From assembly GCA_963677485.1 (NCBI GenBank), contig OY781964.1, forward strand, positions 1,760,001 through 1,824,000: a stretch of 64,000 nucleotides of DNA, in the 5' to 3' direction. The notes beneath the pieces were generated by a model, which had not been told where the DNA came from, did not search any database, and was given only the letters and a program-made list of their open reading frames with translations. The translations under genes were made by a program, and so were the position numbers. Shown in pieces: positions 14,053 to 42,538 of this stretch (the first letter of the stretch is position 1; every line of letters starts with the position of its first letter). The stretch is from Armatimonadota bacterium (GTDB lineage: Bacteria > Armatimonadota > HRBIN16).

Positions 14053-14498
14053 TACTCAACCCCTCCACCCCTTAGTGTCCTTCATTGTCTGTGCAATGAT
14101 ATGTCCTATCATACCACATATAAGACGATGTTCATGCATTTTTGGTACATAGACATCACCCCACTTTATAGAGGTCGGCAACTATGCGATCAGTTACCGG
14201 CCTCTGCAGATCGCGTATGGTTGGAGTTTCATGCTTGCACACGGTACATACTTTAACGCATATGTATCTACATGACAACTGTTCAGAAAACCACGCCATC
14301 CGGCACCTGACGTCCCCCTAGGGTAGGATACTTTCTAGCCAGGCAGTCTGCCCAGCTTGTTGCGCCACATCACCAGCGGACTCATGCTTTCCTGCCAAAC
14401 CGCTCTGAACTAACAATACCATCAACCCACCAAAACAAAATACCCTCCTTCTGGGGTATCATTATTTCTGTTGTATACCGCATTTACCTTTTATATAT

Positions 14499-14512
14499 GG
14501 TACTATATTTGC
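14499..14512 (+). repeat. attL core GGTACTATATTTGC
   Basis: Identical to 51056-51069; 68 bp beyond the integrase stop. Confidence 0.88.
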
Positions 14513-14549
14513 TAATATTCACTTTGATCAGTTCGTGCGGGATTCGCAT
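14499..14549 (-). other. 5' half (MRIPHELIKVNISKYST) of the attP-spanning phage ORF
   Basis: ATG 14549 with a G-rich RBS; the last codons run through the att core in the same frame as the 3' half at 51055-50930. Confidence 0.65.
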
Positions 14550-14580
14550 TACTTTCGCCCCCTGGAGTCTAATTCTGAGT

Positions 14581-15648
14581 CTAATCGACCTTCCGAATGA
14601 TCGCTTTGACCTTCCACATCTCACGAACTGCCTCGTCAGCACCAGGTAGCACGTGACTATATACGTCCAATGTGGTCTTGATGCTGTTGTGACCAAGACG
14701 GGCCGAAACCGCCGGTATGGTCATCCCGTGATGCAGAAGATAGCTGGCATGGGCATGCCGAAACATATGGGGATGGAACTCCACACCAATCGCCTCAGAT
14801 GCGATCTTGACCGCGTTTGATATGAGGGTGGAGTTATACGGATTGGACCGTCGTGACAACACATACAGGAACTTGCACTGCGATGCCAGGTAGTGTAATA
14901 CCTCGATCGCACCATCAGGCAGTGTGATAGTTCGTATGCTGCTCACTGTTTTCGGGGTGGTGATCTGACCCCGGGTATACTGCCGACTAACAGTCAATCT
15001 GCCCAGGTCGAAGTCAACATCACTCCACATCAAGCCGCACGCTTCACCCACGCGCAAGCCTGTATAATACAGAAGCTTACACCTGGCGGCCATCATCGGA
15101 CTGTGCTCATCTAGGAAGGCGATGATCCGCTCCGCATATTCGACCACCCTCTGGTCGACCTTCCGGGCGGACGCCGGCACCTTGATACCGTCCGTAGGTT
15201 TACGCAGTAGATAGCCACGTTCGATTGCCCAAGACGCCATGAGGCTTAATATGGTGATGCGGTGTTTGATAGTCGATGCTGCCATTCCGGCCTCAAGAGC
15301 AGCATCGACTACCTGCTGCACGATATCCCGGTTCAACTGAGACAGCCGTGTCGAAGGGAGTGCTCCCGCCCACATCCGGGTACCGCTCAACACATTATCA
15401 GCCGATGTCTTGCATATCCCCTTTTGATATTCGGTAAACCAGCTCTCAAACGCCTCAGCTACGGTCATTTTGGTGGCTGTAGGATGTACACCTCCGTCGA
15501 TCTGAACCAACAGGTCGCGTCGCCACCGGTTCAGTTCTGTCTTGCTGTCTGCTACATGGCTATAACTACGACCATGAACCATCAACCTGATCCGCAGCCG
15601 ACCATTCGGCATTCGTGATATGGTGCCTTCATGTTTATCGCGGCGCAT
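14581..15648 (-). CDS. int: Tyrosine recombinase/integrase
   Basis: YTGLRVGEACGL, TPKT, HMFRH, RLGH and T..VYSH catalytic motifs. Confidence 0.95.
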   Translation of the reverse strand: MRRDKHEGTISRMPNGRLRIRLMVHGRSYSHVADSKTELNRWRRDLLVQIDGGVHPTATKMTVAEAFESWFTEYQKGICKTSADNVLSGTRMWAGALPSTRLSQLNRDIVQQVVDAALEAGMAASTIKHRITILSLMASWAIERGYLLRKPTDGIKVPASARKVDQRVVEYAERIIAFLDEHSPMMAARCKLLYYTGLRVGEACGLMWSDVDFDLGRLTVSRQYTRGQITTPKTVSSIRTITLPDGAIEVLHYLASQCKFLYVLSRRSNPYNSTLISNAVKIASEAIGVEFHPHMFRHAHASYLLHHGMTIPAVSARLGHNSIKTTLDVYSHVLPGADEAVREMWKVKAIIRKVD

Positions 15649-15889
15649 GATGGGCCACCCTTCGCGATAATGCATAGTCGATTAAGTCTTTCCTGGCCAC
15701 TTTATACCCACGGCCGATTTTGAAGTGTGGCAGGTCACCGCGAACAATAGCGTCGCGTAGGTGCCTTGCGCTGCATTTCATGAATTCGGCAGCTTCAGTC
15801 AATGGCATCAGGTCAGGAAACTCAGGCGTGTCATCACGGATCACGGGTACATCCTTATGTATGTCGAATTTGATTGCAGGTCTACCCAT
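15635..15889 (-). CDS. Excisionase-like HTH_17 protein
   Basis: LTEAAEFMKCS......I..GDLP..KIGR.YKV; overlaps the int start. Confidence 0.8.
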   Translation of the reverse strand: MGRPAIKFDIHKDVPVIRDDTPEFPDLMPLTEAAEFMKCSARHLRDAIVRGDLPHFKIGRGYKVARKDLIDYALSRRVAHHAPR

Positions 15890-15890
15890 T

Positions 15891-16196
15891 TCACTCGACC
15901 TCCTTAAGTCGGCTAGCTAGGGAATCCAGAACGGATGTAATGGCGTTACGGAAGTCGAGCACACAGAGATCATGTTTAAAGCGTAACCACCCGAGAGCTT
16001 GCCGAAGGTTGTTTGTGTATATACCGTCCCTACATCCCAGTGGTTCACACGTATATACCGCCACGTATTTTGGCTTTGAACCTCCCATACCAAACCTCGC
16101 AGATATGGCAACATGTCCATTGAAAAAGCCAGGCGAGTGCGGTGATCTCAAAGTCCACACTAGATTGTTGTGTCGTCGTCTGCTTGCTCTACCCAT
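15891..16196 (-). CDS. Phage hypothetical protein
   Basis: RBS AAGGAGGAG before ATG 16196; in the leftward early operon. Confidence 0.55.
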   Translation of the reverse strand: MGRASRRRHNNLVWTLRSPHSPGFFNGHVAISARFGMGGSKPKYVAVYTCEPLGCRDGIYTNNLRQALGWLRFKHDLCVLDFRNAITSVLDSLASRLKEVE

Positions 16197-16499
16197 TCTT
16201 ATCTCCTCCTTAAATCTTGCCGGTGGCCCCGGCTTGTGTTCAAACCGGCGGGTTGAACGGGGCCACCTTCTCGCCGCTCCAACTGGAGCGCACGCCACGA
16301 CAACTCATTGCCGCACACGCCGCATATACCGCTGCCGTCCGGCATCAGATGCACGAAGGGCGACACACGCCCGCAACGGCCGCACCTGGTGTTATGGGCA
16401 ACCATCACCGGTCACCACGAAACAACGCATACCCCACACCCAGGCCGATGTAGAAGCAGACCACTCCGACCACCGCAATGGCCATGATCAACCTATCGA

Positions 16500-16712
16500 T
16501 CATCGGGATCGCCTCTTACCCACCGTGGCGGTCTCTAGCTCAGGTTCAACAGTGCCAGGTAGAGGCCGGTTCACCCGGCTCTCCATCTCGGCCACGATCT
16601 CGTCATACTCGCGCCTGGCGGTCTTCAGCTCCTCGGTCAACCGGGCGATATCAGCCTTCTTGCGTGCCCACATCTCCATCAACTCCACGGCCAACGTCTC
16701 CTTCGATATCAT
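16500..16712 (-). CDS. Phage hypothetical coiled-coil protein
   Basis: Heptad-rich; ATGA overlap with the upstream ORF. Confidence 0.6.
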   Translation of the reverse strand: MISKETLAVELMEMWARKKADIARLTEELKTARREYDEIVAEMESRVNRPLPGTVEPELETATVGKRRSR

Positions 16713-16924
16713 CGGACCGCCTCCAGCTCAAGCACCATCTGGCCTTCTATGTGCTGGCAGTTGGCGATGTGGTCCCGGACCGCGGTCATGACAGCCAGCT
16801 CTCGCTGGGCATCCTCCGGGCGCATTTCACCACGCTGCACACGCTTGCTGTATACGCCGTTGCGCATCTTCAACTCGCGGTTCAGGCAGCGCAGCATCTC
16901 TTCTCTGGTCACTCTTGGTTCCAT
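16709..16924 (-). CDS. Phage hypothetical protein
   Basis: RBS GGAGG; C..REL..R..VY...V..G.M....A.RE...M.AV pattern typical of small phage proteins. Confidence 0.6.
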   Translation of the reverse strand: MEPRVTREEMLRCLNRELKMRNGVYSKRVQRGEMRPEDAQRELAVMTAVRDHIANCQHIEGQMVLELEAVR

Positions 16925-16993
16925 AGTTCCTCCTGTATAATGGAGGTGGATGCTCCTAATCGTCCACCTCATGACGCCTGAGAACTGCAATTC

Positions 16994-17311
16994 TCAGGCG
17001 TTTTTGTCATTCCATACATATGGCAGTAACTCACCTGCCTGTGAGTATCCATCCAGTGCCTTTTGCGCGAGTTCACGGCTGGTGAACGAACGCGGCTCGC
17101 TAAACAGTTGAATGGCTAGCAGATGCTCATTGATCTTCGTGTCGTATAGCCAAACGCCCCAACGTTCGCTCTGGTCTCCACGCAGTATCGGATAGCGGTC
17201 CACTACAATGGCCAGGTCGCTACCCGCTCTGACGATATACCCACCTTCCGGGTGCCACGATAAATACTTGAGATCATCATCGGCAGAGGGGATAGGTTCT
17301 TGCTCGATCAT
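16994..17311 (-). CDS. Phage hypothetical protein
   Basis: ATGA overlap with the upstream ORF in the early operon. Confidence 0.55.
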   Translation of the reverse strand: MIEQEPIPSADDDLKYLSWHPEGGYIVRAGSDLAIVVDRYPILRGDQSERWGVWLYDTKINEHLLAIQLFSEPRSFTSRELAQKALDGYSQAGELLPYVWNDKNA

Positions 17312-17544
17312 ATTCCTGCCACCTGACGCTTACGCCAATTGGCCACCTCCTCAAGGACCTGCAAAGCCATCTCCTCGGCAGGAAGCATATCCAACAGCAT
17401 GTCCTTCTCAGGAACTCGGTCACGCATCACGCGGACGCGCAGCATGTCACCCTGCGGCTTTACGTTGATCTTCTGCTTGCTCATCGTGTGGCCACTATCT
17501 GGGCGGTCGCGGTCATCTGCCCACACAGATATGCGATGTTCCAT
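17308..17544 (-). CDS. Phage hypothetical protein
   Basis: Coupled ORF in the early operon. Confidence 0.5.
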   Translation of the reverse strand: MEHRISVWADDRDRPDSGHTMSKQKINVKPQGDMLRVRVMRDRVPEKDMLLDMLPAEEMALQVLEEVANWRKRQVAGI

Positions 17545-17859
17545 ATGATCACTGGAACCATAATGATGATGCCGGTCACCATCCAGTCAAGTATGTGTTC
17601 TAGCAGCGGCCTGCCTGGGTGCTGCTTCAGTCTCGGGCGCATTTCGTCTCCTCCTTGAATAGATTGTTGATGACGCGGTGTATGACAATGACATGCATGG
17701 CCAGCCGTAAAATCATCGGCATCTGGACCCGGTACACCTAATCGTTGATGACCAAGCCGAATGTACCATCGTCAGATGGTCCGCCAGACAGCGTGTGAAC
17801 ATCAATCACGTCATCCGGATGAACTTCCATCACGCTGCCGTCTTTGGTCTCTGTGTCAC

Positions 17860-18099
17860 TCATCGGTGGGCCTCCTCGTATATTGACATCACCTGCGGGC
17901 TCATCATAATGACATCGGTGGCGGATTTGTAGACATGGACGCATTGCTGGTTATTACCTATGGCGGGTTGGCCATCCACTGGCTTGATCTGCACCAATGT
18001 ATTCGTGGCTTGCAGGTATGCAATACACACCTCGACTGTTGGGAATGCTGTACGGGTAGCCCGGTGTTTCGAGTAGTCGTATGCGCCTATGATTTTCAT
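17860..18099 (-). CDS. Phage hypothetical protein
   Basis: ATG overlaps the cro stop (ATGA); RBS GGAGG. Confidence 0.55.
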   Translation of the reverse strand: MKIIGAYDYSKHRATRTAFPTVEVCIAYLQATNTLVQIKPVDGQPAIGNNQQCVHVYKSATDVIMMSPQVMSIYEEAHR

Positions 18100-18317
18100 T
18101 GTGTTGCCTCCTGTGTTTGTGCTGGCCATATTTCGGCCTCGGTTACACCTAGTGCCGCTGCGATTCGCTGGCGTATGACAGGCCCCGGAACATAACCATA
18201 ATTTTCGATCTGTTGCAGTGTCAACATGTTTGTGTCGGCTGCTGCGGCAAGTCCCATGCGGGTCAGATTTTGGCTAGTCCTGATGCTCCTCAGGTTGGTG
18301 TGATATCTGGGTTTCAT
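18096..18317 (-). CDS. Cro-like XRE HTH regulator
   Basis: NLRSIR...LT...LA......TLQQIEN...P.......IAAALGV...IW; RBS GGAGG; divergent from cI. Confidence 0.85.
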   Translation of the reverse strand: MKPRYHTNLRSIRTSQNLTRMGLAAAADTNMLTLQQIENYGYVPGPVIRQRIAAALGVTEAEIWPAQTQEATQ

Positions 18318-18415
18318 GCGACCTCCTATCAATATTGATGATACTTCATAGAATATACCATTGTTTCGTATATTTATACAACTATTATTACTAAATATCA
18401 TGCAAAAATAATAGT
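18318..18415. promoter_or_regulatory. Divergent cro/cI switch region
   Basis: Very AT-rich 98-bp spacer with the imperfect palindrome GTATATTTATAC (18368-18379). Confidence 0.7.
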
Positions 18416-19072
18416 ATGGAATCAAAACTACCAGACAGAATCTATAAGGCGGTGGCACACCGCGGGTTTCGGTCGCTCAGAGCAGCATCGAAAGCGTCAG
18501 GCGTCTCATACTCAACAATTAGCAGTTGGGTTCAGGGCGTAAGTAATCCATCGTCAGAGTTATTAGCACAGTTTTCCAAATCAATAGGAGTAGATATGGC
18601 GTATTTCACCGGGGATTTGACCCTGGACCAAGCATGTGAAGCGTTCGAGAACCGAAACCAGGTGTATGCGGTGGGTATACAACCTATGGTTAAGCTGCCA
18701 TACTGGAATGTACCAGCCGACCCATATAACGGCCGCACAGCCGATGTAGATGAGCCGGATGGTTATATCAGCTTCCCAGCAGATACCGGTGCTGACTTTG
18801 CGATCTGTGTTACTGGCATCTGTATGGAACCATCTATGCGTACCGGAGATTATGTGGGAATTCGGCGAACACCGGTCTGCAGCACCGGCGAAGTGGCGTT
18901 AATTGAAGTGCTTGAGACAGGCGATCGGATGATCAAGCGGTCGGTGATGCGGAAGGGGCGGCGGTTTTTTGCACCCGACAACGAGGACGCCGGGGAATAC
19001 GCCATCCCCGCAGAGGGATGCCGCGTGATCGGCGTGGGCGTTGCGCTTACGCGCGGTAAGGGCGGGTTGTAG
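18416..19072 (+). CDS. CI-like repressor (XRE HTH + S24 peptidase-like domain)
   Basis: SGVSYSTISSW..G...P HTH; FAICVTGICMEP...GDYV...IKR S24-like domain; no obvious RBS, possibly leaderless. Confidence 0.85.
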   Translation: MESKLPDRIYKAVAHRGFRSLRAASKASGVSYSTISSWVQGVSNPSSELLAQFSKSIGVDMAYFTGDLTLDQACEAFENRNQVYAVGIQPMVKLPYWNVPADPYNGRTADVDEPDGYISFPADTGADFAICVTGICMEPSMRTGDYVGIRRTPVCSTGEVALIEVLETGDRMIKRSVMRKGRRFFAPDNEDAGEYAIPAEGCRVIGVGVALTRGKGGL

Positions 19073-19078
19073 ATGTAA

Positions 19079-19603
19079 ATGAATAGTATTGTGGAGCATA
19101 TTATTGGATTTCTCAAGGAGCTTCCTGAACGGGCGATCTATATAGTGGTTGCGTTATTAGTGATCTATGCCTTCGCATATCATTCGCCTGATGACAAGGC
19201 ATCCATCATAATACTTGAGTATAGCAGCTGGATTAAGTACGGATGCTTGTTTCTATTCACTGTTTTCTCTTTGCCAGGTATAGTAAATTATGTATACAAA
19301 CGATGCATCATATATACCCTGAGTTGGGTCAGGGAGAGACGAAACGAGCGCAAGAACAGTCATATTAGAAGATTCGTTGCGGACCTTCCCATCGATCAAC
19401 GTTCGTTTCTAGCCAAGTTTGCGTTTGGAGCCAAATTAGTGATTTCCGTTGAGCACCGTATGATATCAACGCTTCACGAAAAATCGTTAATTAGGGTAGT
19501 AAACCCAAGTGACATTACCGATATATCTGTAGTATTTGAAGCAACAGACATAAGATATGCTAACTACGCTCGATATATGGTCACAAATCAAACAACCAAA
19601 TAA
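19079..19603 (+). CDS. Two-TM membrane protein, superinfection exclusion SieB-like
   Basis: Two TM segments then a cytoplasmic L...Q..FL..F...L..K.LI domain; directly downstream of cI; AT-rich. Confidence 0.5.
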   Translation: MNSIVEHIIGFLKELPERAIYIVVALLVIYAFAYHSPDDKASIIILEYSSWIKYGCLFLFTVFSLPGIVNYVYKRCIIYTLSWVRERRNERKNSHIRRFVADLPIDQRSFLAKFAFGAKLVISVEHRMISTLHEKSLIRVVNPSDITDISVVFEATDIRYANYARYMVTNQTTK

Positions 19604-19616
19604 TCACGATGCAAAG

Positions 19617-19685
19617 AGGAAGGGCCGCCGCTACTTCGTGCCCGACAACGAGGACGCCGGGGAATACGCCATACCCACCGAGGGC
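19617..19685 (+). pseudogene. Duplicated remnant of the cI 3' end
   Basis: Encodes RKGRRYFVPDNEDAGEYAIPTEG versus cI RKGRRFFAPDNEDAGEYAIPAEG; 32-bp exact match 19641-19672 = 18974-19005. Confidence 0.85.
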
Positions 19686-19810
19686 TTCGGTGTTAACTAC
19701 ATATTAGGTTGTTAAGTCCAGAATAAGTTGGGCAGACAAGAGTAGTTATAACAGTAGAGCTGAAGCAGCCACTGTATGACAAAATGTTGGAGTTAATGAG
19801 GATAATCAGA

Positions 19811-21220
19811 CTAAGACAAAGGATTGTAGTGTTGTAGAACACGCCTTATGCTAGGCGATAGTTCACAATCCGAAATGCCATGAAAAGTATTGTTACTTAT
19901 CAAGTGATCGACCATCTGCTTTTCATTGGTAGTTAAATCTGAATAGTTTTGCCACCACAGGTCAATCCTACCTTCTAACCTACATCGCTTTCTGTTGATG
20001 ATGTAGTATTCTGGCATCATTAGTATCTTGTTGAATTCCTTGATGTCTTGACCGAAAGCTTCTTCAAAGTAGCTCAACCTTGTCCCTACAACACCCTTAG
20101 TGCGTAACAACACACATTGGATCGCCCGAAGAGATTTACGATCCCAGTATTTACCAATGTTACCAGGTGTAGTGACTAGACGGTTTTTACTCATCAGGTT
20201 GATGTAGCGCATGGGAAATGAATATATCTGAAGCCCTAATTCTTCGTTGAGTTCAACATTCATGCGCATACGTTCATATAAATGTTCGGGTTGGTCGTCG
20301 TAGTTGAACAATAGGTAGTTGGAAAGATATACAAAACCGTGCTTAGCAGCTAACCTTATTTTCTCTTCATATAGTTTTCGATATGATATGTTGTCAAATG
20401 CAAGGCGTAATGGCTTCAAGGCGATTTCGCTAAGATAGCCCATTGAGATGTCTGTCAGTAATCGAATATCGATCCCTTGGTTGAAGTCTACATGCCTTTG
20501 GGCATGAATGACTCGGTCGCCTTTTGATCTGTAACGGAATACCGCATTTTTCGGAAATCCTAAGGACTTGATGTCACTGATGATCTCGAATAATCTATCT
20601 GAGGCAAGAACGTTGTTATCAAGTAATAACAGGTCCTTCTTGGGGCCATATAGTTCGGTTACTCGTTCAACTTGGTCTTTCAACGATAGATAATCCTTGT
20701 ATAATGGCTCTATCTGAGGCACGGCACAAAACGAACAACGCCGTATGCACCCTCGTGTCGCATACGCTATATATGCATTAGATGCTGGATAACAATACGC
20801 AATGTCATTCAATATACCGTAATCAGGCAGCATAGTTTCTACGATGTCATCGTCATCATATCCAAGCTTACCCTTTGTATCAAGTAGCCCTGACACTACG
20901 CGACATTTCACAGTCTGACGAATATCATCTGGCATCAGCGTAGCCAGCACACCACCAACAACAAGATTGTCGGCAATCGGTTCCTTAACACTTTCACCGT
21001 AATATCGTAATGCCTTGATTGTATGGGCCCAATCATATGTGAACAGACTGGCGATATATATGCGATCCCATCTCCATCGATCGCGATGACTGCTTGAGAG
21101 GCCTTTAACGAACTCCACATAATCGCCTTTTTCCTTGTGATACTGGGCGATTTTCATAAGACCTAGGGGCGGGAACTTGCTTCGATAACTTGGTTCAACC
21201 AGTAAAATAAAGCGGTTCAC
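19811..21220 (-). CDS. Radical SAM protein with B12-binding-like N-terminal domain
   Basis: TRGCIRRCSFC (CxxxCxxC), LLLDNNVL, VDFNQGID; N-terminal PPLGLMKIA...VGGVLATL. Confidence 0.85.
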   Translation of the reverse strand: MNRFILLVEPSYRSKFPPLGLMKIAQYHKEKGDYVEFVKGLSSSHRDRWRWDRIYIASLFTYDWAHTIKALRYYGESVKEPIADNLVVGGVLATLMPDDIRQTVKCRVVSGLLDTKGKLGYDDDDIVETMLPDYGILNDIAYCYPASNAYIAYATRGCIRRCSFCAVPQIEPLYKDYLSLKDQVERVTELYGPKKDLLLLDNNVLASDRLFEIISDIKSLGFPKNAVFRYRSKGDRVIHAQRHVDFNQGIDIRLLTDISMGYLSEIALKPLRLAFDNISYRKLYEEKIRLAAKHGFVYLSNYLLFNYDDQPEHLYERMRMNVELNEELGLQIYSFPMRYINLMSKNRLVTTPGNIGKYWDRKSLRAIQCVLLRTKGVVGTRLSYFEEAFGQDIKEFNKILMMPEYYIINRKRCRLEGRIDLWWQNYSDLTTNEKQMVDHLISNNTFHGISDCELSPSIRRVLQHYNPLS

Positions 21221-21242
21221 ATTCTTGACTCATTGTTCTTAT

Positions 21243-22262
21243 TTAACATAACGCACCGATTGTAGTTGGAAAGTGATTATCACATCGATCCCATTCACTG
21301 ATTTCTACGAATTTGTTAATGTAATAAGTGATGGTATCGCTTATTGAGAGGGTATCAAAATCTTCGTTAGGAAGTATACTAGAAATACTCACTAGTTGGT
21401 TGTTCTGTAGTTCAAACCGACTTGTACTCAAGAAATCAGTCAATGATTGGCAACTTGGCGGCAGAGGTTTGTCGATACCTGCGAATGAGCCTAGCATGGT
21501 ATATACTGCCATCTGACTCCGTGGTCCGCTAGTATACATGACAGTTGGAAGAAATAATGCAGTGATATTATTGCCGTCAAAGTATCGACTAAAAGTATGG
21601 TAAACAAACAAATCAAGCATTGGATGAGAGGCTTGAGTTTTATCTGAATAACATATCGGGTGGTCAGATTCAATGTATGATGCTACACTACGGCATTCAC
21701 CTGACAGATTTTTCATGAAGTTTGCCAGCGCATTTGTATGGATTTCATTGCGCACGGTCAGGAACGTTACAAATGGTTGACTGCGCTGTTCAACCGGTAA
21801 ATCAGTTTGACATTTAATTAAACATCTGATGGCTTCATACCGATGATTCTCGCTATTTTGATCATGGCCAGATATTGCTTGGCAAAAGTCAAGCTGGTAT
21901 AGCGTTACAAGATCATTCTGAACAAAGATCTTTCCGTTAAGATCTTGCTTATTGATCATGACTTCTTCGATCAAGCCAAAGTAGGTGTCGGATCGTATTT
22001 GATGTTTTAATCTTAGTTCCATAAGGTTCGCTTCTAGCATGTCGAGTGACCGTGTGTAATATTCGTCTTTATCTGGCTTTTCGAACGCACATACCCTTCC
22101 GATCATGTCAGTCCATTCGTGGATATCTTCAATATAAGGCCCGGGTAGACCAAGATAGAAATATTTACTTTTAATATGACATAACAATGTCTTAAGGATA
22201 GGTGTGCACCATTCGCTCCGGATGGTGTTCTTGCTTACACTACTCTTAAACGGTACCGTCAC
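21243..22262 (-). CDS. Uncharacterised protein, possible SAM-methyltransferase-like Rossmann fold
   Basis: YLGLPG...VCAFE...LDFC spacing; GTG start overlaps the ATPase stop (GTGA). Confidence 0.5.
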   Translation of the reverse strand: MTVPFKSSVSKNTIRSEWCTPILKTLLCHIKSKYFYLGLPGPYIEDIHEWTDMIGRVCAFEKPDKDEYYTRSLDMLEANLMELRLKHQIRSDTYFGLIEEVMINKQDLNGKIFVQNDLVTLYQLDFCQAISGHDQNSENHRYEAIRCLIKCQTDLPVEQRSQPFVTFLTVRNEIHTNALANFMKNLSGECRSVASYIESDHPICYSDKTQASHPMLDLFVYHTFSRYFDGNNITALFLPTVMYTSGPRSQMAVYTMLGSFAGIDKPLPPSCQSLTDFLSTSRFELQNNQLVSISSILPNEDFDTLSISDTITYYINKFVEISEWDRCDNHFPTTIGALC

Positions 22263-23857
22263 AGTTTATCCTCCATTGATGACAATAGACTTACTAACAC
22301 AGATTCATAAATGTCATGATCGACGTATGCCCTTATGATCTGATCGTCAATTTCTTTTATAAATGTGGCCATCGAAGGATTCGGCGATAAACCTAATTGG
22401 TCAACTACATCGAGTAAACTAGCAGGTGGTGCATCTCCATGTACCGACATACTGTTAGTTTGCAGCTGTTGCTGATTACGTATTTCTCTCAGAGTTGCAG
22501 ATACTTTACTATGACGTTTCGCTTTGTTGGTTCTGATCAACTCTGATATTTTGGATTCGATTGCCTTACAACGATCTTCAAAATCCGACAACTCCGTTAC
22601 CATGAGAGTTCTGAGTGTTTTTTTGTGCGACTGTACCCTCATCATTAACATAGTTAGTTCAAAGCTTGAACGTAGGAGCTTTTCCGAGTCTCCCTGAGAT
22701 CCCAGATATTGCTTCTCGATTTCATTGCAGGCATCTATAGCAGTTATCAGGACATCCTTAGCTTTACGTTCGTTTTGTAACTTATCAACTGCCTCTGAAA
22801 TATCTTTTGCTAGTTTGATCAAGAGTTGGTGGAATTTATCTCTGATCTGACTGGCTTCAAATTCATCACGAGCAGCATTTGGAAGTAACTCATCCAAGCT
22901 AACAATGACTTCGCCAGTAATTCTATCGAGAATTACCTTACGAGCAAAATACTGATAGGCATATGTTCTGCTGCCTATAGAAAAACCTTGCTTTTTGATT
23001 AATAACCCCCTAAGACTCTTGTTGATGAGCACATTGTTCGTGTCATTTGCGCAATACCAGCATATACCATAATGCCTGCTGGTATCTTTTACCTCAAGAA
23101 ATGCTGGTTTTTCACCTTCATTGTTGTTAAATATATCATTTGTATAGGGTCTGTAAACCATACGTGACGATCCATGTGACTCTATTGTAAAATTGATATT
23201 CTTTAAATTATACGAACTAAGTTTCGATTCTATTTCATCTTTCCATCGAAAATCCGGATTGAAAGGCAATGGTATAGATGACTGTATATACTCTTCAAGC
23301 CTCCTATCATCCTTAAGCCGGTCTCCCATGTCTGTCGACAATGATTTCATTACCACCATGGTCCCATGCATACTCATGAAATCCTCATTATCGTCTCCAA
23401 CCGTAATGGCCCTAGACATTACGGTTTCCAACCCTAGATCCCTTGGTTTTCCTTTCAGCATTTCTTTTTGTTCTTGAGCAATAAGGTCACGTATGAGTTT
23501 GAAGTCCATATCAACAACACTGCATCGATCGTCCATATCCCTGGTGTGTATGACTAGTCGATCGCATAGATGCAACGCACTGTATATTCCGATTCCACGA
23601 AAGCCTACTTGGGTTGTTGGGTTCTTACTGGACATTCCAAGCCGTATAGCTTGAGATGCCACATCTGGGCTCATTCCTGTCCCATTATCTATGACTACAA
23701 CAGAGTTTGACGTGATGATCACCTGTAGCTCAGTTGCACCTGCATCTATACCGTTTTGCGCATATTCACGAATTGCGTCGAACGGGTCGCGATATAGACC
23801 TAAAGTTAAAATAGGAAGTAACTCGGCCCCGATGTCAGTACTTTCGAATTTCCTCAT
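22259..23857 (-). CDS. GHKL (HSP90/MORC/MutL-like) ATPase
   Basis: REYAQNGIDA, IDNGTGMS, GFRGIG and GT.V motifs; LPNAARDEFE; coiled-coil C-terminus. Confidence 0.85.
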   Translation of the reverse strand: MRKFESTDIGAELLPILTLGLYRDPFDAIREYAQNGIDAGATELQVIITSNSVVVIDNGTGMSPDVASQAIRLGMSSKNPTTQVGFRGIGIYSALHLCDRLVIHTRDMDDRCSVVDMDFKLIRDLIAQEQKEMLKGKPRDLGLETVMSRAITVGDDNEDFMSMHGTMVVMKSLSTDMGDRLKDDRRLEEYIQSSIPLPFNPDFRWKDEIESKLSSYNLKNINFTIESHGSSRMVYRPYTNDIFNNNEGEKPAFLEVKDTSRHYGICWYCANDTNNVLINKSLRGLLIKKQGFSIGSRTYAYQYFARKVILDRITGEVIVSLDELLPNAARDEFEASQIRDKFHQLLIKLAKDISEAVDKLQNERKAKDVLITAIDACNEIEKQYLGSQGDSEKLLRSSFELTMLMMRVQSHKKTLRTLMVTELSDFEDRCKAIESKISELIRTNKAKRHSKVSATLREIRNQQQLQTNSMSVHGDAPPASLLDVVDQLGLSPNPSMATFIKEIDDQIIRAYVDHDIYESVLVSLLSSMEDKL

Positions 23858-24433
23858 GGCATTCCTCACTCATAGCATATGGTGCGATGCGGTATTGACG
23901 GTATCCAACTGTATGATACACTGGGCTAATACAGATATAGATTATAAACCAGCATACGTCATATTATCACCACATGCATATCTACGGTACAATTAGCGAG
24001 TATCCGTCTGAATGTTGTTGACTTCGAGTATGCGATTAACACATCGGATGATGATAACAATATGTCTGACACGAACTGCGTGTACTTCGGAGGAGCCCAT
24101 AAAACCAAACATACTGATAGGCTCAAGAATCAACATCAAATTTGTCCAAATGACTATATACCCACCAAATATCGAGAGATCACAGCATACCAAACATCGA
24201 CATGTCAATATACCAACTACAGGCGAGTTCGGATTCTAGCCAATTTGTTACATTAGTCGAGTATCATGATCCTTCGATCAGTAAAACATAGAGAAGTGTC
24301 ATTATATTGCGATAATATGGTTTGGTATGGAATTACTGTTCTTACCGGCATTAATAATACATACTCACATGATACATCCACAACTCTACTAGATTGTGTA
24401 ACAAATACCCAAAAGAGTTCATTCCCACCTCCC

Positions 24434-27262
24434 TCACCCCTGCCTGCACCTCACGCACCTACCCCCACCGGGTAGGCTGCGCTTCTGGCAGATCAACTTG
24501 CCCTGCTTGTTCCGCCGCAGCACCAGCGGGCCGACACGCTTCGACCAGTGGGCCACATGCAGCCCGCGGCTGTGCCACCAGAGCGGTGCCTCCTGGCACG
24601 GGTAGACCTGCGACACCGTAAGCGACGGCCGGAAATCCCAGCTACAGATGTCACCGGTCCAACCTACCAACTCCTGGCCGTCACGTAACAGTGAGTGGTC
24701 CAGGTAGTGCTTCCCGCCCGGGTTCATGGCCAGCAGAACGCCGTTCGTACCGGTGGCCACACTTTGCACCAGCGTCTCGCCAGCCTTCAACTCCACCGTG
24801 TCATTCGCAAGCCCCGCACCCACCGCACTGCCGTGCAGTATCGTGGCCACACGCAGCACCAGCTCGTCATCGCCCAGGTTGAACGGGTCATGTACCCCGG
24901 CGAACCAGTCTATCGCATCCGCCAGTGACTGCACCTTCGTGCTGCCCAACCCCAGAGCCGACTGCACCTGCGGGCTGGCGGTCCAGATCACACCGTGGCC
25001 ACCCCACCGGCAGCCTACTCCGGCTAGCACCCACTCATATACGCTGCCCGTCGCCGGGGTCGGGATGCTTACGCTCCAACCTGGCCAGCGTCGTAGCACC
25101 CCCACCGGAACGTCTGGAACACCAAACCGCCAGAGGTTGAACTCATGCTCCTCGACCACCTGAACCGCCACGCCGGTCACGATCTTGAGCTCCCAGGCGA
25201 AGATATCAAATTCACCGAGCTCCTCACTGACCAGGTGCGACGAGGTGCGGACTATGTCAAACGCCTCCAGGTTCGGCAGACCATCGCATACCCCAAGCAG
25301 CAGACGCCTCCGCCAGTGCTTACGCTGGGTGGTGTCCTCTTCGTTAAGCTGGTCATACCGCTCCTCGCGTATCCACTGGTTCAGTGGGGGAAGCAGCCAC
25401 ACTAGCGGCTCCGACTTACGAAACAGCTCCACGCTGCCCAGTATCCAGCCGTCACCGTCAGTGGTTGGTACCTCAACCTCAATCCACTCCGGAAGGGTTA
25501 CCCCGCTGAGGGTTCCATCGAGTGTGGGTTGTGGCCACCGGCTCAAGGTGTTTGGCCGCGCGAGCTCGCCATGGTTGCCGGTCGGCGGTGGGTTCCCACC
25601 TTCAGACACAAGCCCGGTGATGTCCGGCCTGGCCAGGTCTATCTCTATCGTGCCGTCCGCCTTCACCTTCGTGGTCCAGGTCTTTACCGCCAGGCTCGGG
25701 TTCTCCCAGCTCATCGTGGCGGGGTCCGGGTAGAGTGCAGCCAGGTTGTCTTGCTTGATCCGCACCGTTACTGTGTCGAGGGGTAGAGGCGTGTGGTCAC
25801 GCTTGAGGTTGATCCGCAGATAGCGGTAACCCGCGAAGGTAGGCCGCGGGGGACGGCTGGGGCTCTCGCCAAACTGCTCGGTGTCCCACTCTAGCGTGCG
25901 GCGCAAGGTCATGGCCACCGCCCCGGTGTCCGGCGTGATACGAGCAACCAACCCGTCCGGATCAAGGCTGCCGTGTGCGACCGTCCAGCGGCCGCAGGTG
26001 AGCGAACCCCCAGAGACCCAGGCACCAGATGCGAGTGTATAACCATCCTCCGCCCAGCCTAAGCCAAGCGAGCTCATCGCCGCATGTGATAGAGTCGGGC
26101 CATCGACCGCCCACAGGTGCATCAGCATCCGGTTATCCTGCCAGGTTCGGTATGGCAGGTAGTCGCTCCAATCCTCCGGCAGATCGTGGTATTCGTTGGC
26201 CAGGCTCCATACCGGGTTCAGCCCGACCGACAGATCGCCCCAGTTCGACCAGGTGCCGCCGTCCGAAAAACGGCCCGTCCCGCTGCTGGCGTTGAAACTC
26301 CAGAACCACATCCGCTGCGTGATGCCTTCCGCATAATAACCGTCAGTGGCTGCGACGATGGGCAGGGCGGTGTCGTTGCCGTGTCTGCTGACCGCAAGCT
26401 CCGAAGGTATCCCGCCGCCCGCAGGGTTGAGCACCGCGCAGGTGATGGACACCTCACGCGTCAGGTGCCAGCCGCCCGCCATGACCGTGGTCATGCTTGC
26501 ACCACCGCTGGTCGGAGTGGCTCTGCCCACAAGGTGGCCGTCACCCAGCTCCCCACTGCAGGTACCGCCGCTATAACTCCATGTTGGTGATGCACCGTCG
26601 CAGTGGTAATGACCGTTCGAGCAGATGATATTCACCCGCCCCTCGGCGGTCTGTGTGCCAGCGATCGCCGTCACTGTGGCACTGGCGTGCAGCTCGTTTG
26701 GTAGGTCAGCCCCTACCGTGCCGCAGGTGCCGGTATAGGTGCCGATGTTGGTGACGAGCGTCCAGGTGGCCAGCTCCCGTAGCCGAAGCCACAACCTGCA
26801 CTTGGTGCGGTCTGGTGTATCCCTCTGAAAGCCCCGGTGATGGAAGCCCACAAAGCCCGCGCCGTCACCCTCACCCATGGTCAGCATGTCCGCCATCACG
26901 TCACATGGCGCACTGAACGTCAGTGAGCCCGCGTGGGGCTGGGTATGGACACCCTCCGGCAGACCAAACCGGATACTCATCGTGGCCCACTCCGCCGGTG
27001 CTGGTTGTCCGCTCGGGTAGGTCAGGGTGTAGTCGAATGGCAACTGGTCAGTATGTGGCCAGCTCACATCCGGGTATGCCCCCGCCGTGATGTTACCAAC
27101 CGAAAAAGCACCCACAGAAAGCGGAGTGGTGGCCGATAGCGACCCATTGGCGGTGATGCGGGAATGCAGGAATGGCATGAAGTTATCCCTGTAGACCTCA
27201 ATCTTCGCCGCGTGGTAGAACTGAATGGTCCAGGTGACGGTCTGTTCATCGATCTTTATCAT
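24434..27262 (-). CDS. Large phage tail-tip / host-recognition protein
   Basis: 942-aa G/T/W-rich ORF at the end of the tail operon; ATGA coupling. Confidence 0.6.
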   Translation of the reverse strand: MIKIDEQTVTWTIQFYHAAKIEVYRDNFMPFLHSRITANGSLSATTPLSVGAFSVGNITAGAYPDVSWPHTDQLPFDYTLTYPSGQPAPAEWATMSIRFGLPEGVHTQPHAGSLTFSAPCDVMADMLTMGEGDGAGFVGFHHRGFQRDTPDRTKCRLWLRLRELATWTLVTNIGTYTGTCGTVGADLPNELHASATVTAIAGTQTAEGRVNIICSNGHYHCDGASPTWSYSGGTCSGELGDGHLVGRATPTSGGASMTTVMAGGWHLTREVSITCAVLNPAGGGIPSELAVSRHGNDTALPIVAATDGYYAEGITQRMWFWSFNASSGTGRFSDGGTWSNWGDLSVGLNPVWSLANEYHDLPEDWSDYLPYRTWQDNRMLMHLWAVDGPTLSHAAMSSLGLGWAEDGYTLASGAWVSGGSLTCGRWTVAHGSLDPDGLVARITPDTGAVAMTLRRTLEWDTEQFGESPSRPPRPTFAGYRYLRINLKRDHTPLPLDTVTVRIKQDNLAALYPDPATMSWENPSLAVKTWTTKVKADGTIEIDLARPDITGLVSEGGNPPPTGNHGELARPNTLSRWPQPTLDGTLSGVTLPEWIEVEVPTTDGDGWILGSVELFRKSEPLVWLLPPLNQWIREERYDQLNEEDTTQRKHWRRRLLLGVCDGLPNLEAFDIVRTSSHLVSEELGEFDIFAWELKIVTGVAVQVVEEHEFNLWRFGVPDVPVGVLRRWPGWSVSIPTPATGSVYEWVLAGVGCRWGGHGVIWTASPQVQSALGLGSTKVQSLADAIDWFAGVHDPFNLGDDELVLRVATILHGSAVGAGLANDTVELKAGETLVQSVATGTNGVLLAMNPGGKHYLDHSLLRDGQELVGWTGDICSWDFRPSLTVSQVYPCQEAPLWWHSRGLHVAHWSKRVGPLVLRRNKQGKLICQKRSLPGGGRCVRCRQG

Positions 27263-27708
27263 GCTGGCGTCTCAGGCTGCGACTTACACTCCTCTGTCGT
27301 GGTGATCAACACTGCCGGGTCATCTTCTTCACCTATGAACCGGATACGCCCGGATTCGGTGATCTCGGCCGGACGTGGTCTGAACTCGAACTTGCCGGTC
27401 TCTTCGGAATACTGAATGTCGGTGGCCAGGAACACCCGCACACCGTGCCCCTGGTTGGCGGTCCATGTGTCGGTGTCCCTGGTTCCTTGAACATGACCGA
27501 GCTCGACGATCGGGCCGTCTGCCTCTGGGACAATCACCCCGGAGCCACCCCTCGATGGAACGGTGGCACTGACCATCTGACCGCGGGGGCTGCGGCTCAC
27601 CTGAATGCCGTTACCCGGCACCACAAGCAGGCTCTCCAGCATATCGAGCAGCGCATTATAGTCCGCCCAGGTCACTTGCTCCCCTGGGCGTTTACGGCTG
27701 CCTATCAT
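27259..27708 (-). CDS. Phage minor tail protein (hypothetical)
   Basis: Position and ATGA overlaps on both sides. Confidence 0.55.
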   Translation of the reverse strand: MIGSRKRPGEQVTWADYNALLDMLESLLVVPGNGIQVSRSPRGQMVSATVPSRGGSGVIVPEADGPIVELGHVQGTRDTDTWTANQGHGVRVFLATDIQYSEETGKFEFRPRPAEITESGRIRFIGEEDDPAVLITTTEECKSQPETPA

Positions 27709-28577
27709 TCCGGTAACTCGCCAGGTGGATCATCACCCGCTTTAACCGGGATACCAAGCAGCGTGGCCATGTCCACCGCTGCGTACTTCTTCACGGCCTC
27801 CGGACCAATCGGTGTGTCCCACGCCCCCTCACCAGCGGGGCCAGCCACATAGACTGGCGTGCCGATAAGTTTCTGGTCGGTGGTGTAGTCATCTTTACCC
27901 GCGTCCTTGTCTTGCCAGAACCGCTCGCGTCCATCGGCGGTTCTGGCTTGCAGTGGTTCACGCCACTCCTCATTCCAGTTGCGTTTTCGCATCCCGAAGG
28001 TGAAGATCACCTTGCTGTATTCGAATGCGCCTGTGAACGGGTCATACTTGGTGTCCTGCGAGACGTCCTGAAGCAGCAGCCGACCGACATTCACCCCCCG
28101 GAATACACGGTCATTGATACAGCCGATACAGGCCATGAGCATCGCAGACCGGTCCACTACCTGACGCATGGTTAACTGCAGGTCACCGCTAAATTCTGGC
28201 ATGGAAATATCCTGCGTCACCTTTGTGCTGGCGGTCTCCCACGTCCAGCCGATGAGCTTCTGGCCGCTCTCAAGACGGCCTCGCAGGTTCTCCTCAACCC
28301 ACTCTTCGGCATTCTCTTTAAGGTCCTGGCTGGTGCTATACTGGGCAGTGATGCGGGCTATCATGCCCTCGGCGGTTTGTGCGATCTGCCTGTGTGACAG
28401 GTTGACGATCCGCAGGATAGGCATGTCCGGCCACCCGTCACCCTTGACCGGAAAGCCGCGCATATACGGGTCATAATCGGGTTCTATCTCATCCCATAGC
28501 ACCGTCCAACTGCGCTGCGCGGTGAGACCATTACCGCTGACTTCCACATTACGGCTGGCAATATCCTCGGCAAACAT
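27705..28577 (-). CDS. Phage tail protein following the tape measure (distal-tail position)
   Basis: TAATG coupling to the TMP; beta-rich. Confidence 0.55.
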   Translation of the reverse strand: MFAEDIASRNVEVSGNGLTAQRSWTVLWDEIEPDYDPYMRGFPVKGDGWPDMPILRIVNLSHRQIAQTAEGMIARITAQYSTSQDLKENAEEWVEENLRGRLESGQKLIGWTWETASTKVTQDISMPEFSGDLQLTMRQVVDRSAMLMACIGCINDRVFRGVNVGRLLLQDVSQDTKYDPFTGAFEYSKVIFTFGMRKRNWNEEWREPLQARTADGRERFWQDKDAGKDDYTTDQKLIGTPVYVAGPAGEGAWDTPIGPEAVKKYAAVDMATLLGIPVKAGDDPPGELPE

Positions 28578-30136
28578 TAGGCAGTCACCACCGGTAGACG
28601 GCTCGCCTCTACCGCCCGCATGATACGCAGCACCGCTTCCTTTATGTCACGGATGTGAGCCACAAGCTCTGTGCTGCCTGGCAGAGACCCTGAAGACTGC
28701 AGGGCGTTCATGCTCTGTGGGGCTCCGGCGATGCTCGCTGCTGCCGTAGACAGCTTCGATGTGTCAGGCATACTGTAGCTTGGCAGGGCTGTTGGTTGGA
28801 CATCCGGCATACTCATGGTGGCTTCGGCTGACTTCCTGACCTTGTCGAGGTTGGATTTACCCCCTATACCAGCCAACTGTTTATCGACATCAGAGTTTTC
28901 CTTCTTGTGAGTACTGTTGTATATGGCCACCCCGGCAGCAGCGATACCTACGGCAGCCAACGCCACACCAGCCGCAGCAGGGTTGGCCGCGGCCCAGGCG
29001 ATGATCGCACTGTTTCTCATCATGTCAAAAGCGCTCCGGATGGCCATGATCCCCTTGGCCACAGGCCCGGCGACGGCCACCAGACCCAAGAACCCGATCA
29101 CCCCCGCTGCGATGGGTTTAGGCATCGCGGTCAGCACGCCAATGATTGGTTTAGCGATGTCTATGAGCATATCAAGGGCAGGCATCACAGCATCGGCGAT
29201 CGATAGAGCGAGCTCACCGAACTTCATCTTTACCCCAGCCAGCTTCGCGTTCATCGCATCGAACTTCTCGTCCATCTTGGCAGCCGCGACTAACACTTCG
29301 TCATTCATCACCGCCCCGCTCTTGTGTGCTTCGGTAGCCAGGTTGGTAAACCCCTGGGCACCCATGGCGATGATAGGGGCCATCTCGGCAGACGACTTAC
29401 CAAACAGCTTTGTGGCCAGGTTGTTGCGCTCGATACCCTCCGGCATCTGACCAAGTGCCCCGATGGTCTCAGAGAAGATACTGTTCATATCCCGGAACTT
29501 GCCGTTGCTGTCAAGCACCGAAACGCCGATACCTTTGAGCTGCTGTTGTATAGCCTCGTTACCGAGGTTCTTCTGCAGCTTTTCGACCGACTTCATGAGG
29601 GGCTCGAACTCCAACCCGCTTTGAGAGGCCACGAACTGCAGCTCCTGGAGGGTCTGTGTGGTCAACCCTGTGGCCGTCTTAAGGTTCATCAGCTTCTCAG
29701 CCTGGTCAGCCATTTTGCTGGCCTCATATAGTCCTGCACCGACCGCCGCAGCCAGAGGGGCTTGCACGCTTGAGGAGACACTAGATAGCTTATCGAGCTT
29801 CTGGTTCTTCTGGGCCTTGGCGATGGCCAGGTCCTTCTCCTGATTGGAGATCTCTTTACGCAGGCTGGCCGACTGGCTCCGCAGTGCGTTAAGGGTCTCC
29901 TTCTCGCCGGACTGCAGAGCCTGTTCTATCTTCTTTTTAAGCTCAACCTGCTCGTTCTGCATCTGCTGCAGCTTTTTGGTGGCCTCGGTGATGCCTCTTG
30001 TGTCCGGACGAATTGATGTCAAGCGTTCCGCAAGCCGCCCGTTGGCTTCAGCCTGCTTCTTCATCTCGTTCATAGACTTCTGGAAGCTCTGCAGACTAGC
30101 AGTGATCGCCAGTTCATAGGCACCTACACTAGGCAT
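28577..30136 (-). CDS. Tail tape measure protein
   Basis: Ala/Leu-rich helical; TG.T...LQEL, A..LFGKS..E..P and hydrophobic AANP segments; follows the chaperones. Confidence 0.88.
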   Translation of the reverse strand: MPSVGAYELAITASLQSFQKSMNEMKKQAEANGRLAERLTSIRPDTRGITEATKKLQQMQNEQVELKKKIEQALQSGEKETLNALRSQSASLRKEISNQEKDLAIAKAQKNQKLDKLSSVSSSVQAPLAAAVGAGLYEASKMADQAEKLMNLKTATGLTTQTLQELQFVASQSGLEFEPLMKSVEKLQKNLGNEAIQQQLKGIGVSVLDSNGKFRDMNSIFSETIGALGQMPEGIERNNLATKLFGKSSAEMAPIIAMGAQGFTNLATEAHKSGAVMNDEVLVAAAKMDEKFDAMNAKLAGVKMKFGELALSIADAVMPALDMLIDIAKPIIGVLTAMPKPIAAGVIGFLGLVAVAGPVAKGIMAIRSAFDMMRNSAIIAWAAANPAAAGVALAAVGIAAAGVAIYNSTHKKENSDVDKQLAGIGGKSNLDKVRKSAEATMSMPDVQPTALPSYSMPDTSKLSTAAASIAGAPQSMNALQSSGSLPGSTELVAHIRDIKEAVLRIMRAVEASRLPVVTA

Positions 30137-30368
30137 TACTCATTCTCTCCATGATTACCCTCATCTCACGCTCTTCATCTTCGTTCGGTTTTGGCTTGTC
30201 GACAACGCCGTATTTCAGCTTCTCATACCAGTACACAGCATGAACCGAATCGACAAAGTCAGCCCATGTCGCATTCCAGAAAGTGTCGGGTGTCCAGCGC
30301 AACAACCCGTAGGCGAGGCGTTTCGCCTCGCCCCAGTCGGTTAGGGTGTTGCGCTCTGGACGTTTCCC
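30129..30368 (-). CDS. Tail assembly chaperone GT extension via -1 frameshift
   Basis: Slippery G GGA AAC at 30368-30362; the -1 frame reads KRPERNTLTDWGEAKRLAYGLLRWTPDTFWNATW...SNA* to TAG at 30129. Confidence 0.75.
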   Translation of the reverse strand, partial: GKRPERNTLTDWGEAKRLAYGLLRWTPDTFWNATWADFVDSVHAVYWYEKLKYGVVDKPKPNEDEEREMRVIMERMSNA

Positions 30369-30643
30369 TCGTCGGTGCTTTCCATTGGGATGTCGCCGAT
30401 CGTGTCGTCTACGATCTCGATAAGCAGCCGTGAACGCTCCTGGGCGGTGTCGAGTGCATCATCGACCTCGTCGGTCGATAACCCGGTGATCGCCGCCACA
30501 GTGCCGATAACATAGGCACAGGTCGCTTCGTCCGGAGCATCTTTGATCTTGGTGACACTGATGCCGGAGAACTGCTCCGCCGCCCGACGGTGCCGGTTTC
30601 GCACCGGCTCATTCCATGTCTTGCCGTTAATGGTGACCTTCAT
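30341..30643 (-). CDS. Tail assembly chaperone G
   Basis: Between the major tail protein and the TMP; ends at the slippery site. Confidence 0.75.
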   Translation of the reverse strand: MKVTINGKTWNEPVRNRHRRAAEQFSGISVTKIKDAPDEATCAYVIGTVAAITGLSTDEVDDALDTAQERSRLLIEIVDDTIGDIPMESTDEGNVQSATP

Positions 30644-31077
30644 TAAGCACTCACCGCCGTGGTGGTCACATGCCCGCTGGACTTTCCACTACCCTTGCTG
30701 GTGCCGGTTTTGTCCAACGTTGCGCCGATCTCGATACTCTCGATCGCAATGATACCCACCATCTTCTCCGTGGTATCACTGTCTGCAACGAATTCGAAAG
30801 GTAGCCTGGTACCCATCTCGCACTTCTTGGCCATGTCGAACGCACCCATGACAGAGGCGTAGGCGTTACCGTCCCAGCTTATTTCGTGGGTAGCTTTAGA
30901 CGGGATGTTGTCGGGCTCTATCATGCCTGTCTCGGTGTTGACATGGCTCGTATCTGCCACTTCTATCAGTGACGCATTCACTTTCATGGTCACCGATGTC
31001 AGTCCGAGAACTGGCGAGCCTGGCGATGTGCCAAGCTTCAGGGCCATTCTGCCAAATTTGATAAGCGTACTACTCAC
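30643..31077 (-). CDS. Major tail (tube) protein
   Basis: Position; beta-rich with tube-protein-like spacing. Confidence 0.7.
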   Translation of the reverse strand: MSSTLIKFGRMALKLGTSPGSPVLGLTSVTMKVNASLIEVADTSHVNTETGMIEPDNIPSKATHEISWDGNAYASVMGAFDMAKKCEMGTRLPFEFVADSDTTEKMVGIIAIESIEIGATLDKTGTSKGSGKSSGHVTTTAVSA

Positions 31078-31080
31078 TCA

Positions 31081-31416
31081 CTAACCTCCCAGTTGTTTGA
31101 TCAGGCACTGCCTGATGATCTTCTTGCCTTTTCCCTTGAGGATGGCACGTATCCACTGTGCCTTACCCCTGCGATGCTTCAGGCTCTTGTCCCAGTAGAC
31201 ACGGCCAGCATATGCCGTGTCGTAGATGATGACCACATTGTTTGCTCCGCGTTCCACGACCCTGGCCGACCTACTCAGCTTACGGGTCCTCGTTGGCACA
31301 GATGACTGCGCTGCTTCCACGATTTGATGAGCCGCGTCTACCATGGCGATATTGAGTTCGTGGCGCATATCTTCCATGATGCGTTGGGTGTCTATATCTA
31401 CGCGCACTCTAGCCAA
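31081..31416 (-). CDS. HK97 gp10-like neck/tail completion protein
   Basis: AQSSVPTRT.KL.RS...YDTAYA motif. Confidence 0.7.
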   Translation of the reverse strand: MARVRVDIDTQRIMEDMRHELNIAMVDAAHQIVEAAQSSVPTRTRKLSRSARVVERGANNVVIIYDTAYAGRVYWDKSLKHRRGKAQWIRAILKGKGKKIIRQCLIKQLGG

Positions 31417-31772
31417 ACCTCAACGAGTACCGAAGGATTACGCAGGTTCTCATCCCTGTCTTGGTCCATCTCGCCAACCCGGCAGAACCCGCCGGTATGC
31501 TGGCTGGTCGGCCGGATGTCGTCACCCAGTGCCTCACAGATTTTGGTGTATACCGTTGATGCTTCGGCACTGCCAGGCGCATCACTGAGTATGTTCAGGT
31601 CAATATCGACCTTCCAGGTCTGCGGGCAGACGCTGATCATGTTCGGAGCTCCGCCGTGCAGGACCACGCAAGGTAGTTCTGGTTCCTCTGGAGCCTCGTC
31701 ATATACTGTTAGTCCGGCCACGGTGAGCATCTGGTAAACCGCCAGTTGTGCGCTGTCTGCTGCGTTGATCAT
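31398..31772 (-). CDS. Tail terminator-like protein
   Basis: LQ.AVY..L.....VYD..P....P.VV pattern. Confidence 0.65.
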   Translation of the reverse strand: MINAADSAQLAVYQMLTVAGLTVYDEAPEEPELPCVVLHGGAPNMISVCPQTWKVDIDLNILSDAPGSAEASTVYTKICEALGDDIRPTSQHTGGFCRVGEMDQDRDENLRNPSVLVEVWLECA

Positions 31773-34319: not shown

Positions 34320-34331
34320 AGTGCGCTCTCC

Positions 34332-35366: not shown

Positions 35367-35386
35367 GTGTTTACTCTCTCTCCTTG

Positions 35387-37468: not shown

Positions 37469-37470
37469 GG

Positions 37471-37893: not shown

Positions 37894-37915
37894 TACTCCT
37901 TATCTGTCTCGGTCG

Positions 37916-42535: not shown

Positions 42536-42538
42536 CCC

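Follow-up and report, generated by a model that had tools for sequence, protein, structure and literature searches.

In prophage A, which lies in the window (the whole stretch of 64,000 nucleotides analysed here, whose numbering is used throughout), the integrase gene int points out of one end and the replication initiator gene rep starts at the other. When the two ends are joined in silico, a stop-free reading frame runs from just behind int, across attP, and onto the start codon of rep. This anatomy, including the stop-free relay, is conserved in three prophages, A and its siblings B and C. The best explanation that we can offer, with a probability of roughly one half, is that int and attP lie within the early lytic operon, that the stop-free frame relays ribosomes to rep, and that integration cuts this unit. 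Translation of the frame, read-through from int to rep, a rep gene without an independent promoter and, hence, gating by excision are what the sequences of the three prophages suggest.

Prophage A and its insertion site

Prophage A is 36.5 kb long, with its genes mainly on the minus strand, and is bounded at both ends by an exact 14-bp direct repeat, GGTACTATATTTGC (Table 1). The repeat has exactly two copies in the window, and two matches were obtained in none of 100 shuffles. In a genome of the same genus (G001), the left flank, one copy of the core, and recA are contiguous, which constitutes an empty attB for prophage A; the segment between the outer edges of the two repeats is therefore an insertion. 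The right junction is bridged by contigs from all four public sequencing runs examined, without a break at the core. The contigs of these four runs show the integrated junction only and no joined form, which says nothing about excision either way, since rare forms are lost from contigs. Contig breaks at 50462-50491 reflect a stretch common to prophages A and B. As for the left flank itself, only the last 65 nt before the core are common to G001. Further out, this flank carries a SocA/Panacea antitoxin-type gene pair (13174-14381), of which the part 14200-14381 has 68% identity to a segment between the rep and int genes of prophage B (G000:C1:663624-663800).

On the minus strand, prophage A reads attR, rep, packaging and tail genes, cro, xis, int, and attL, with cI on the plus strand ahead of cro. 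The original prediction had described such a permuted layout, and the family matches that we obtained for int, xis, cI, rep, terS, and portal confirm it. The loader-like gene behind rep is followed by genes for a VRR-NUC nuclease, a Dam-type methylase, a GerE-like regulator, and an HNH nuclease, and then, likewise on the minus strand, by terS, portal, terL, and the tail genes. About ten small, tightly packed ORFs, also on the minus strand, lie between cro and xis. The TTG at 50933-50931 is likely the start of rep, with GGGAGG six bases upstream and with the codon aligned to the ATG start of rep in sibling C. Overall, an integrase, an excisionase, a core repeat, an empty site, a repressor/cro switch, and packaging and virion genes are all present, and prophage A is an ordinary temperate tailed phage with site-specific recombination by a tyrosine integrase.

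Several further features of prophage A were recorded. The gap between the HNH nuclease gene and terS (46535-46819) holds at least about 12 copies of a 15/20-nt unit resembling ACGGCATCGCAGCGC, and this array could serve in packaging or as an origin. A second copy of the last 195 nt of terL, with 91% identity, stands 1.85 kb downstream (42536-44584), and between the two copies lies an insertion whose 322-aa ORF belongs to no known family; a similar duplicate of the end of terL is present in sibling B. Two genes on the opposite strand within the structural module (41096-42535, plus strand), one of them a fusion of a pentapeptide-repeat and an ion-channel domain, are probably cargo expressed in the lysogen. 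The last gene of the late array (19811-21220, minus strand) encodes a radical SAM domain protein (phrog_9298, 3e-44). A 76-nt piece of the 3' end of cI (18951-19026) recurs with 80% identity about 670 nt downstream (19618-19693). In addition, a plus-strand hairpin with a 12-bp stem and a T-run (16973-17002) lies inside the minus-strand early operon, where it would halt antisense transcription entering from the int end.

Table 1. Positions of prophage A, its genes and sites, and neighbouring host features in the window (loci other than the window are named in the row concerned)
Feature	Position	Strand	Evidence or remark
Whole prophage A	14499..51069	-	14-bp repeat, empty attB, phage gene content
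attL core, GGTACTATATTTGC	14499..14512	.	exact repeat; empty site in G001
attR core	51056..51069	.	36 bp upstream of the recA ATG; bridged by contigs in 4/4 runs
Host two-way terminator-like hairpin	14439..14460	.	about 40 nt outside attL
Att-spanning frame, 5' part	14499..14549	-	ATG 14549-14547 plus 16 codons, to the core edge; read from sequence
Shine-Dalgarno-like GGGGG	14558..14562	-	8 nt before the ATG; purine-rich equivalent at the same place in B and C
TAGACTC, two direct copies	14565..14583	-	5 nt apart, from the int stop codon on; conserved in 3/3 prophages
Tyrosine integrase int	14581..15675	-	PF00589, 2.9e-27; last early-operon gene, pointing outward
Excisionase-like xis	15635..15889	-	HTH_17, 1.9e-9; overlaps the int start
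cro-like HTH gene	18096..18317	-	first gene of the early operon; ATG 18317 after GGAGG
Candidate early promoter, TTGTAT-18-TATATT	18352..18381	-	TG upstream; found by eye, not flagged by the scan
cI-like repressor	18416..19072	+	HTH_3 and S24 self-cleaving peptidase; 218 aa, complete
Gene after rep, helicase loader (P-like)	49529..50074	-	weak match, phrog_109, 2.2e-4
rep, replication initiator (O-like)	50064..50933	-	HTH_36; phrog_270 'replication initiation protein', 3.7e-15; TTG start
Att-spanning frame, 3' part	50930..51055	-	41 codons plus TGA; TGA 50932-50930 overlaps rep TTG 50933-50931
rep Shine-Dalgarno GGGAGG	50940..50945	-	inside the 3' end of the att-spanning frame
TAGACTC, further copy	50961..50967	-	rep side of the core; similar words in B and C
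Weak promoter-like TTGCCA-16-GATCAT	50967..50994	-	9 of 12; between core and rep
Host recA	51105..52145	+	PF00154, 3.5e-137; transcribed away from the prophage
Insertion-to-host-gene spans	51056-51105 (window); 1041-1104 (L009); about 815-868 (L011)

The joined ends of three prophages

A tblastn search with seven proteins of phage A located prophages B and C in the same genome, both with the gene order and relative strands of A and with identities to it of 55-57% in int, 61-64% in rep, and 78-90% in terL. Their core repeats are exact but different (14 bp in A, 15 bp in B, and 13 bp in C) and stand at an equal distance from int, which is complete in A and whose stop precedes the core by 66-68 nt in each prophage. 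The B and C sites are unoccupied in G001 too. All three insertions are in AT-rich DNA and precede the start of a host gene by 36-50 nt, and in each case the host gene on the rep side (recA, a cation-efflux gene, or an HD-domain gene) points away from the prophage, so that read-in from the host is unlikely. In the direction of the host gene, the cores of B and C read GTATAAT, which resembles a -10 box. At recA, the region upstream of the core is phage DNA in the lysogen, and recA expression could therefore change; the phage repressor is of the RecA-sensitive S24 type. The rep genes are mosaic, as the C-terminal half of B rep and the gene behind it are nearly or fully identical to those of A (49529-50933 in the window; locus L009), and the N-terminal DNA-binding part of B rep is unrelated to that of A.

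The frame at the int end of prophage A opens behind int and, in the integrated state, runs four codons into host DNA to a TAA at 14486-14484 (within the minus-strand ORF 14484..14696). When the ends are joined at the repeat, it becomes a single ORF of 58 codons that meets rep in the overlap TTGA. The original prediction had followed the frame from its ATG to the core edge, through its continuation at attR, and to the overlap of its TGA with the rep start, and in this it is correct to the base; circularisation in silico likewise yields the one 58-codon ORF ending on rep. It also hinged on related phages keeping the frame, and both siblings do keep an open path from the ATG behind int to rep. 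In B, the joined frame has 61 codons and ends with a TGATG overlap onto rep. In C, it has 59 codons and passes by an ATGA overlap onto a 25-codon ORF, whose own ATGA overlaps the rep ATG; here the spanning frame itself ends 70 nt short of rep, and the second ORF is needed. Shine-Dalgarno-like purines and an ATG 31 nt after the int stop are present in all three prophages, and in all three the last stop of the relay overlaps the start of rep, in B by way of unrelated sequence. In the integrated forms, the spanning frame is cut to 17-21 codons and stops 0-4 codons into host DNA.

The frame and the expression of rep

The full-length frame exists only in the joined form, and its lengths in the three prophages are alike, as would suit a functional small protein made in full only in the excised or infecting genome, whether as an "I am excised" signal or as a regulator. 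We regard such a protein as very improbable nevertheless. The amino-acid identities of the open frame (15, 10, and 19 of 54) do not exceed those of the wrong frames, and the differences at codon positions 1/2/3 (33/33/27 for A-B, 32/36/28 for A-C, and 24/26/27 for B-C) show no third-position excess. Neither the 41-codon half of the frame nor the 170-nt arm found a match in phage records, and in C the frame would not reach rep without its second ORF. Indels are unusable as a coding test because the spacing is fixed. As judged from these alignments, it is the openness of the frame that is conserved and not the peptide; since only the absence of stops is kept, the frame is more likely a translated spacer than a functional protein, and the 58-aa product of the original prediction finds no support as a meaningful protein.

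The lack of any coding signature, in amino acids or in codon positions, would also be expected if the open frame had arisen by chance in untranslated recombination-site DNA whose spacing the recombination complex dictates. For about 51 codons the three regions can be aligned with no gap, as a fixed arm-to-core spacing would lead one to expect, and ungapped arms with fixed TAGACTC words, which are putative arm-type Int binding sites, would look like a recombination site of the arm-type kind. A relay to rep arose in 689 (A), 1187 (B), and 449 (C) of 20000 dinucleotide shuffles in which the ATG and the last 3 nt were held fixed, that is, in 2-6% of trials per phage, and in 156 (A) and 238 (B) of 5000 trials of a simpler shuffle; moreover, prophage A was picked for its striking look. 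We still consider chance improbable. B and C were tested after the hypothesis had been stated and both pass, with a joint chance of about 0.001 if they are independent, although shared ancestry and a single genome mean that multiplying the per-phage chances overstates the case. Counted from the ATG, the spanning frame is free of stops for 54 codons in each prophage, against 5, 4, and 6 stops over the same length in one of the other frames and 7, 2, and 3 in the other. Ungapped identity of the three regions is 46-56% and drops to about the random level in the middle, with 1-5 of 15 per block, so that the open frames are not simply inherited sequence. The putative initiation signals at one and the same position and the overlap of the last stop with the rep start in all three prophages, in B without shared sequence, also speak against chance.

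A further alternative is a separate rep promoter within the arm between core and rep, perhaps under the control of a phage protein. The replication genes would then be expressed when integrated, the position of int would have no gating role, and the most that the open frame could do would be to raise expression during infection. One promoter-like site matching 9 of 12 positions, and none stronger, lies between core and rep in each of the three phages. Those of B and C fall in a block common to all three arms (CAC-A/T-GTA..) that includes a -10-like hexamer, and rep has a strong Shine-Dalgarno sequence of its own in A and C. The promoter scan was crude and failed to flag the probable cro promoter, so that the finding of no strong promoter is weak evidence and a real one could have escaped. 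Against this, the site of A is not at the homologous place, its copy of the common block has, by eye, no -35 match at a spacing of 16-18 nt, and the counts of sites equal those expected by shuffling (3 against 2.9 in 46000-51400, and 1 against 1.0 in a further scan). In A and B, the arm and the cI-cro control region have no word of at least 8 nt in common, and C has a single 9-mer, where about 0.4 are expected by estimate, which is within chance. An independent promoter would also leave unexplained why the frame is stop-free in all three prophages, and on balance we consider it unlikely. A repressor operator common to cI-cro and the rep arm was considered as well and dropped, the 9-mer being confined to C and within chance.

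Under the reading that we prefer, in which int and attP are part of the early operon and the frame is a ribosome relay, the circle formed upon infection or excision would be transcribed from the cro promoter through cro, the ten or so small genes, xis, int, attP, rep, the loader-like gene, and the late genes, which share one strand. Within the 204-281 nt that hold the recombination sites, one frame would be kept stop-free, and ribosomes would start at the Shine-Dalgarno-like sequence and ATG behind int, cross attP, and terminate on the start of rep through the stop/start overlap. In this way the transcript would stay translated, polarity would be avoided, and ribosomes would be delivered to rep. 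A Rho homologue is present in the host, and an untranslated gap could therefore be polar. The rep gene of B has no obvious Shine-Dalgarno sequence in the joined sequence, which fits a dependence on coupling, whereas the strong GGGAGG before rep in A and C indicates that coupling is not needed for translation there. Neither a T-run of at least 4 nor a terminator was found in the joined sites of A and B, and the folds of the three joined regions show no strong hairpin in common; retroregulation of the lambda sib type would involve a conserved hairpin beyond attP that is cut when read from the int operon.

Integration would cut this unit, so that early transcripts would exit the prophage after int, and rep with everything behind it would lie at the other end, beside a host gene pointing away. 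Terminator-like hairpins stand just outside the int-side core in A and B, and the one in A would stop transcripts of the int operon in the integrated prophage; no terminator-like site was found beyond the int end of C. Since integration separates rep and the late genes from the early promoter, their expression from that promoter would need excision first. We put forward more tentatively, with the odds somewhat against it, the full form of this idea: an excision checkpoint, shared by a family of tailed phages, in which the replication and late genes would be promoterless in the prophage and would regain the single early promoter only through closure of the circle by Int and Xis, the open spacer frame would carry ribosomes onto rep, and excision, replication, and packaging would follow in that order.

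Relatives and comparison with known systems

The frame was compared among prophages A, B, and C, all from one genome, and no closer relative outside this genome was found in viral, genome, metagenome, or phage collections. Between 21% and 30% of the words of 47000-51060 recur in sludge, digester, and cave metagenomes; metagenome and RNA runs with small word shares do not enter the analysis. Searches with rep gave no match in viral contigs and one weak match, at 26% coverage, in phage records, and a rep alignment gave none in genome or metagenome contigs. Among 61 relatives, rep was found only in its own genome, except that a single genome of the same phylum gave two weak matches (E about 2e-6, identity 28-33%), and in all 18 genomes of the host order it was found in its own genome only. 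The int alignment had no match in viral contigs, one distant match among the 61 relatives, and at least 80 loci in genome contigs, those kept being all at or below 35% identity. Against phage records, the best among the matches listed had about 29% identity for int and about 38% or less for terL, and terL had no match in viral contigs. A degenerate 19-nt pattern of the arm sites matched 15 viral and 111 metagenome stretches. A comparison of 95 such loci with seven proteins of A (int, xis, rep, cI, cro, terL, and the loader-like protein) returned a single weak integrase match, 3 kb from the motif, which indicates that the matches to the pattern are due to chance. The host lineage is poorly known, its order comprising 18 genomes in the collection.

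In phage lambda, transcription of int proceeds toward attP, and integration changes the sequence that follows attP; in the phage genome this is an RNA processing site (sib) and not genes. The replication initiator and loader of lambda follow cro in the early operon pR-cro-O-P, and in the lambda prophage O and P stay joined to pR, so that replication in place is possible. Prophage A is like lambda in that int is read toward attP and in that rep and the loader-like gene lie downstream of cro in the circle, but unlike it in that int and attP form a module that separates cro from the O-like gene. In SSV1 and Mx8, attP lies inside the integrase gene, which is split or altered by integration and restored by excision; int of prophage A stops before the core, and A is therefore not of this type.

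The original prediction had likened prophage A to mycobacteriophage BPs while holding the two to be distinct. In BPs, attP lies inside the repressor gene and integration alters the gene product (PMC4557955). The attP of prophage A likewise lies in a reading frame, but the frame is a non-conserved spacer and cI is intact and about 4 kb from attP, so that A is not of the BPs type. The distinction thus stands, and the closest analogue is Tn916 instead, a likeness by which read-through is predicted for the phage. The original paper on circularisation-dependent expression of the Tn916 transfer genes is said to be that of Celli and Trieu-Cuot, from 1998. A later source describes the transfer genes of Tn916 as lacking a promoter in the integrated state; once the element has circularised, transcripts from promoters upstream on the xis-int side cross the joined ends into them (PMC5812530). 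All three prophages resemble Tn916 in having an outward-pointing operon at the xis-int end and co-oriented genes at the opposite end. They differ in that A is a tailed temperate phage and not an ICE, and in that the genes downstream are those for replication, packaging, and the tail. In contrast to Tn916 as far as this source describes it, the joint in the phage lies inside a stop-free frame that ends on the next start codon (PMC5812530). The same account describes Pcirc of ICEclc, where a new transcription unit arises from the two ends of the element in its circular form alone (PMC5812530). There, an outward promoter at one end drives the integrase, whereas in prophage A the int operon would drive the replication genes.

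A full-text search of the literature outside subscription returned papers on ICEs and unrelated work on prophages, and no tailed phage so wired. Amplification and packaging of neighbouring host DNA (lateral transduction) depend on whether a prophage excises before or after replication starts, and in model phages the order of excision and replication is set by timing and not by wiring. If the reading proposed here is true, these prophages would have a hard-wired order of excision before replication, so far known from the conjugative element Tn916, and replication in place would be precluded together with the lateral transduction that accompanies it. It would also mean that recombination-site DNA can stay translatable purely as a bridge between two genes.
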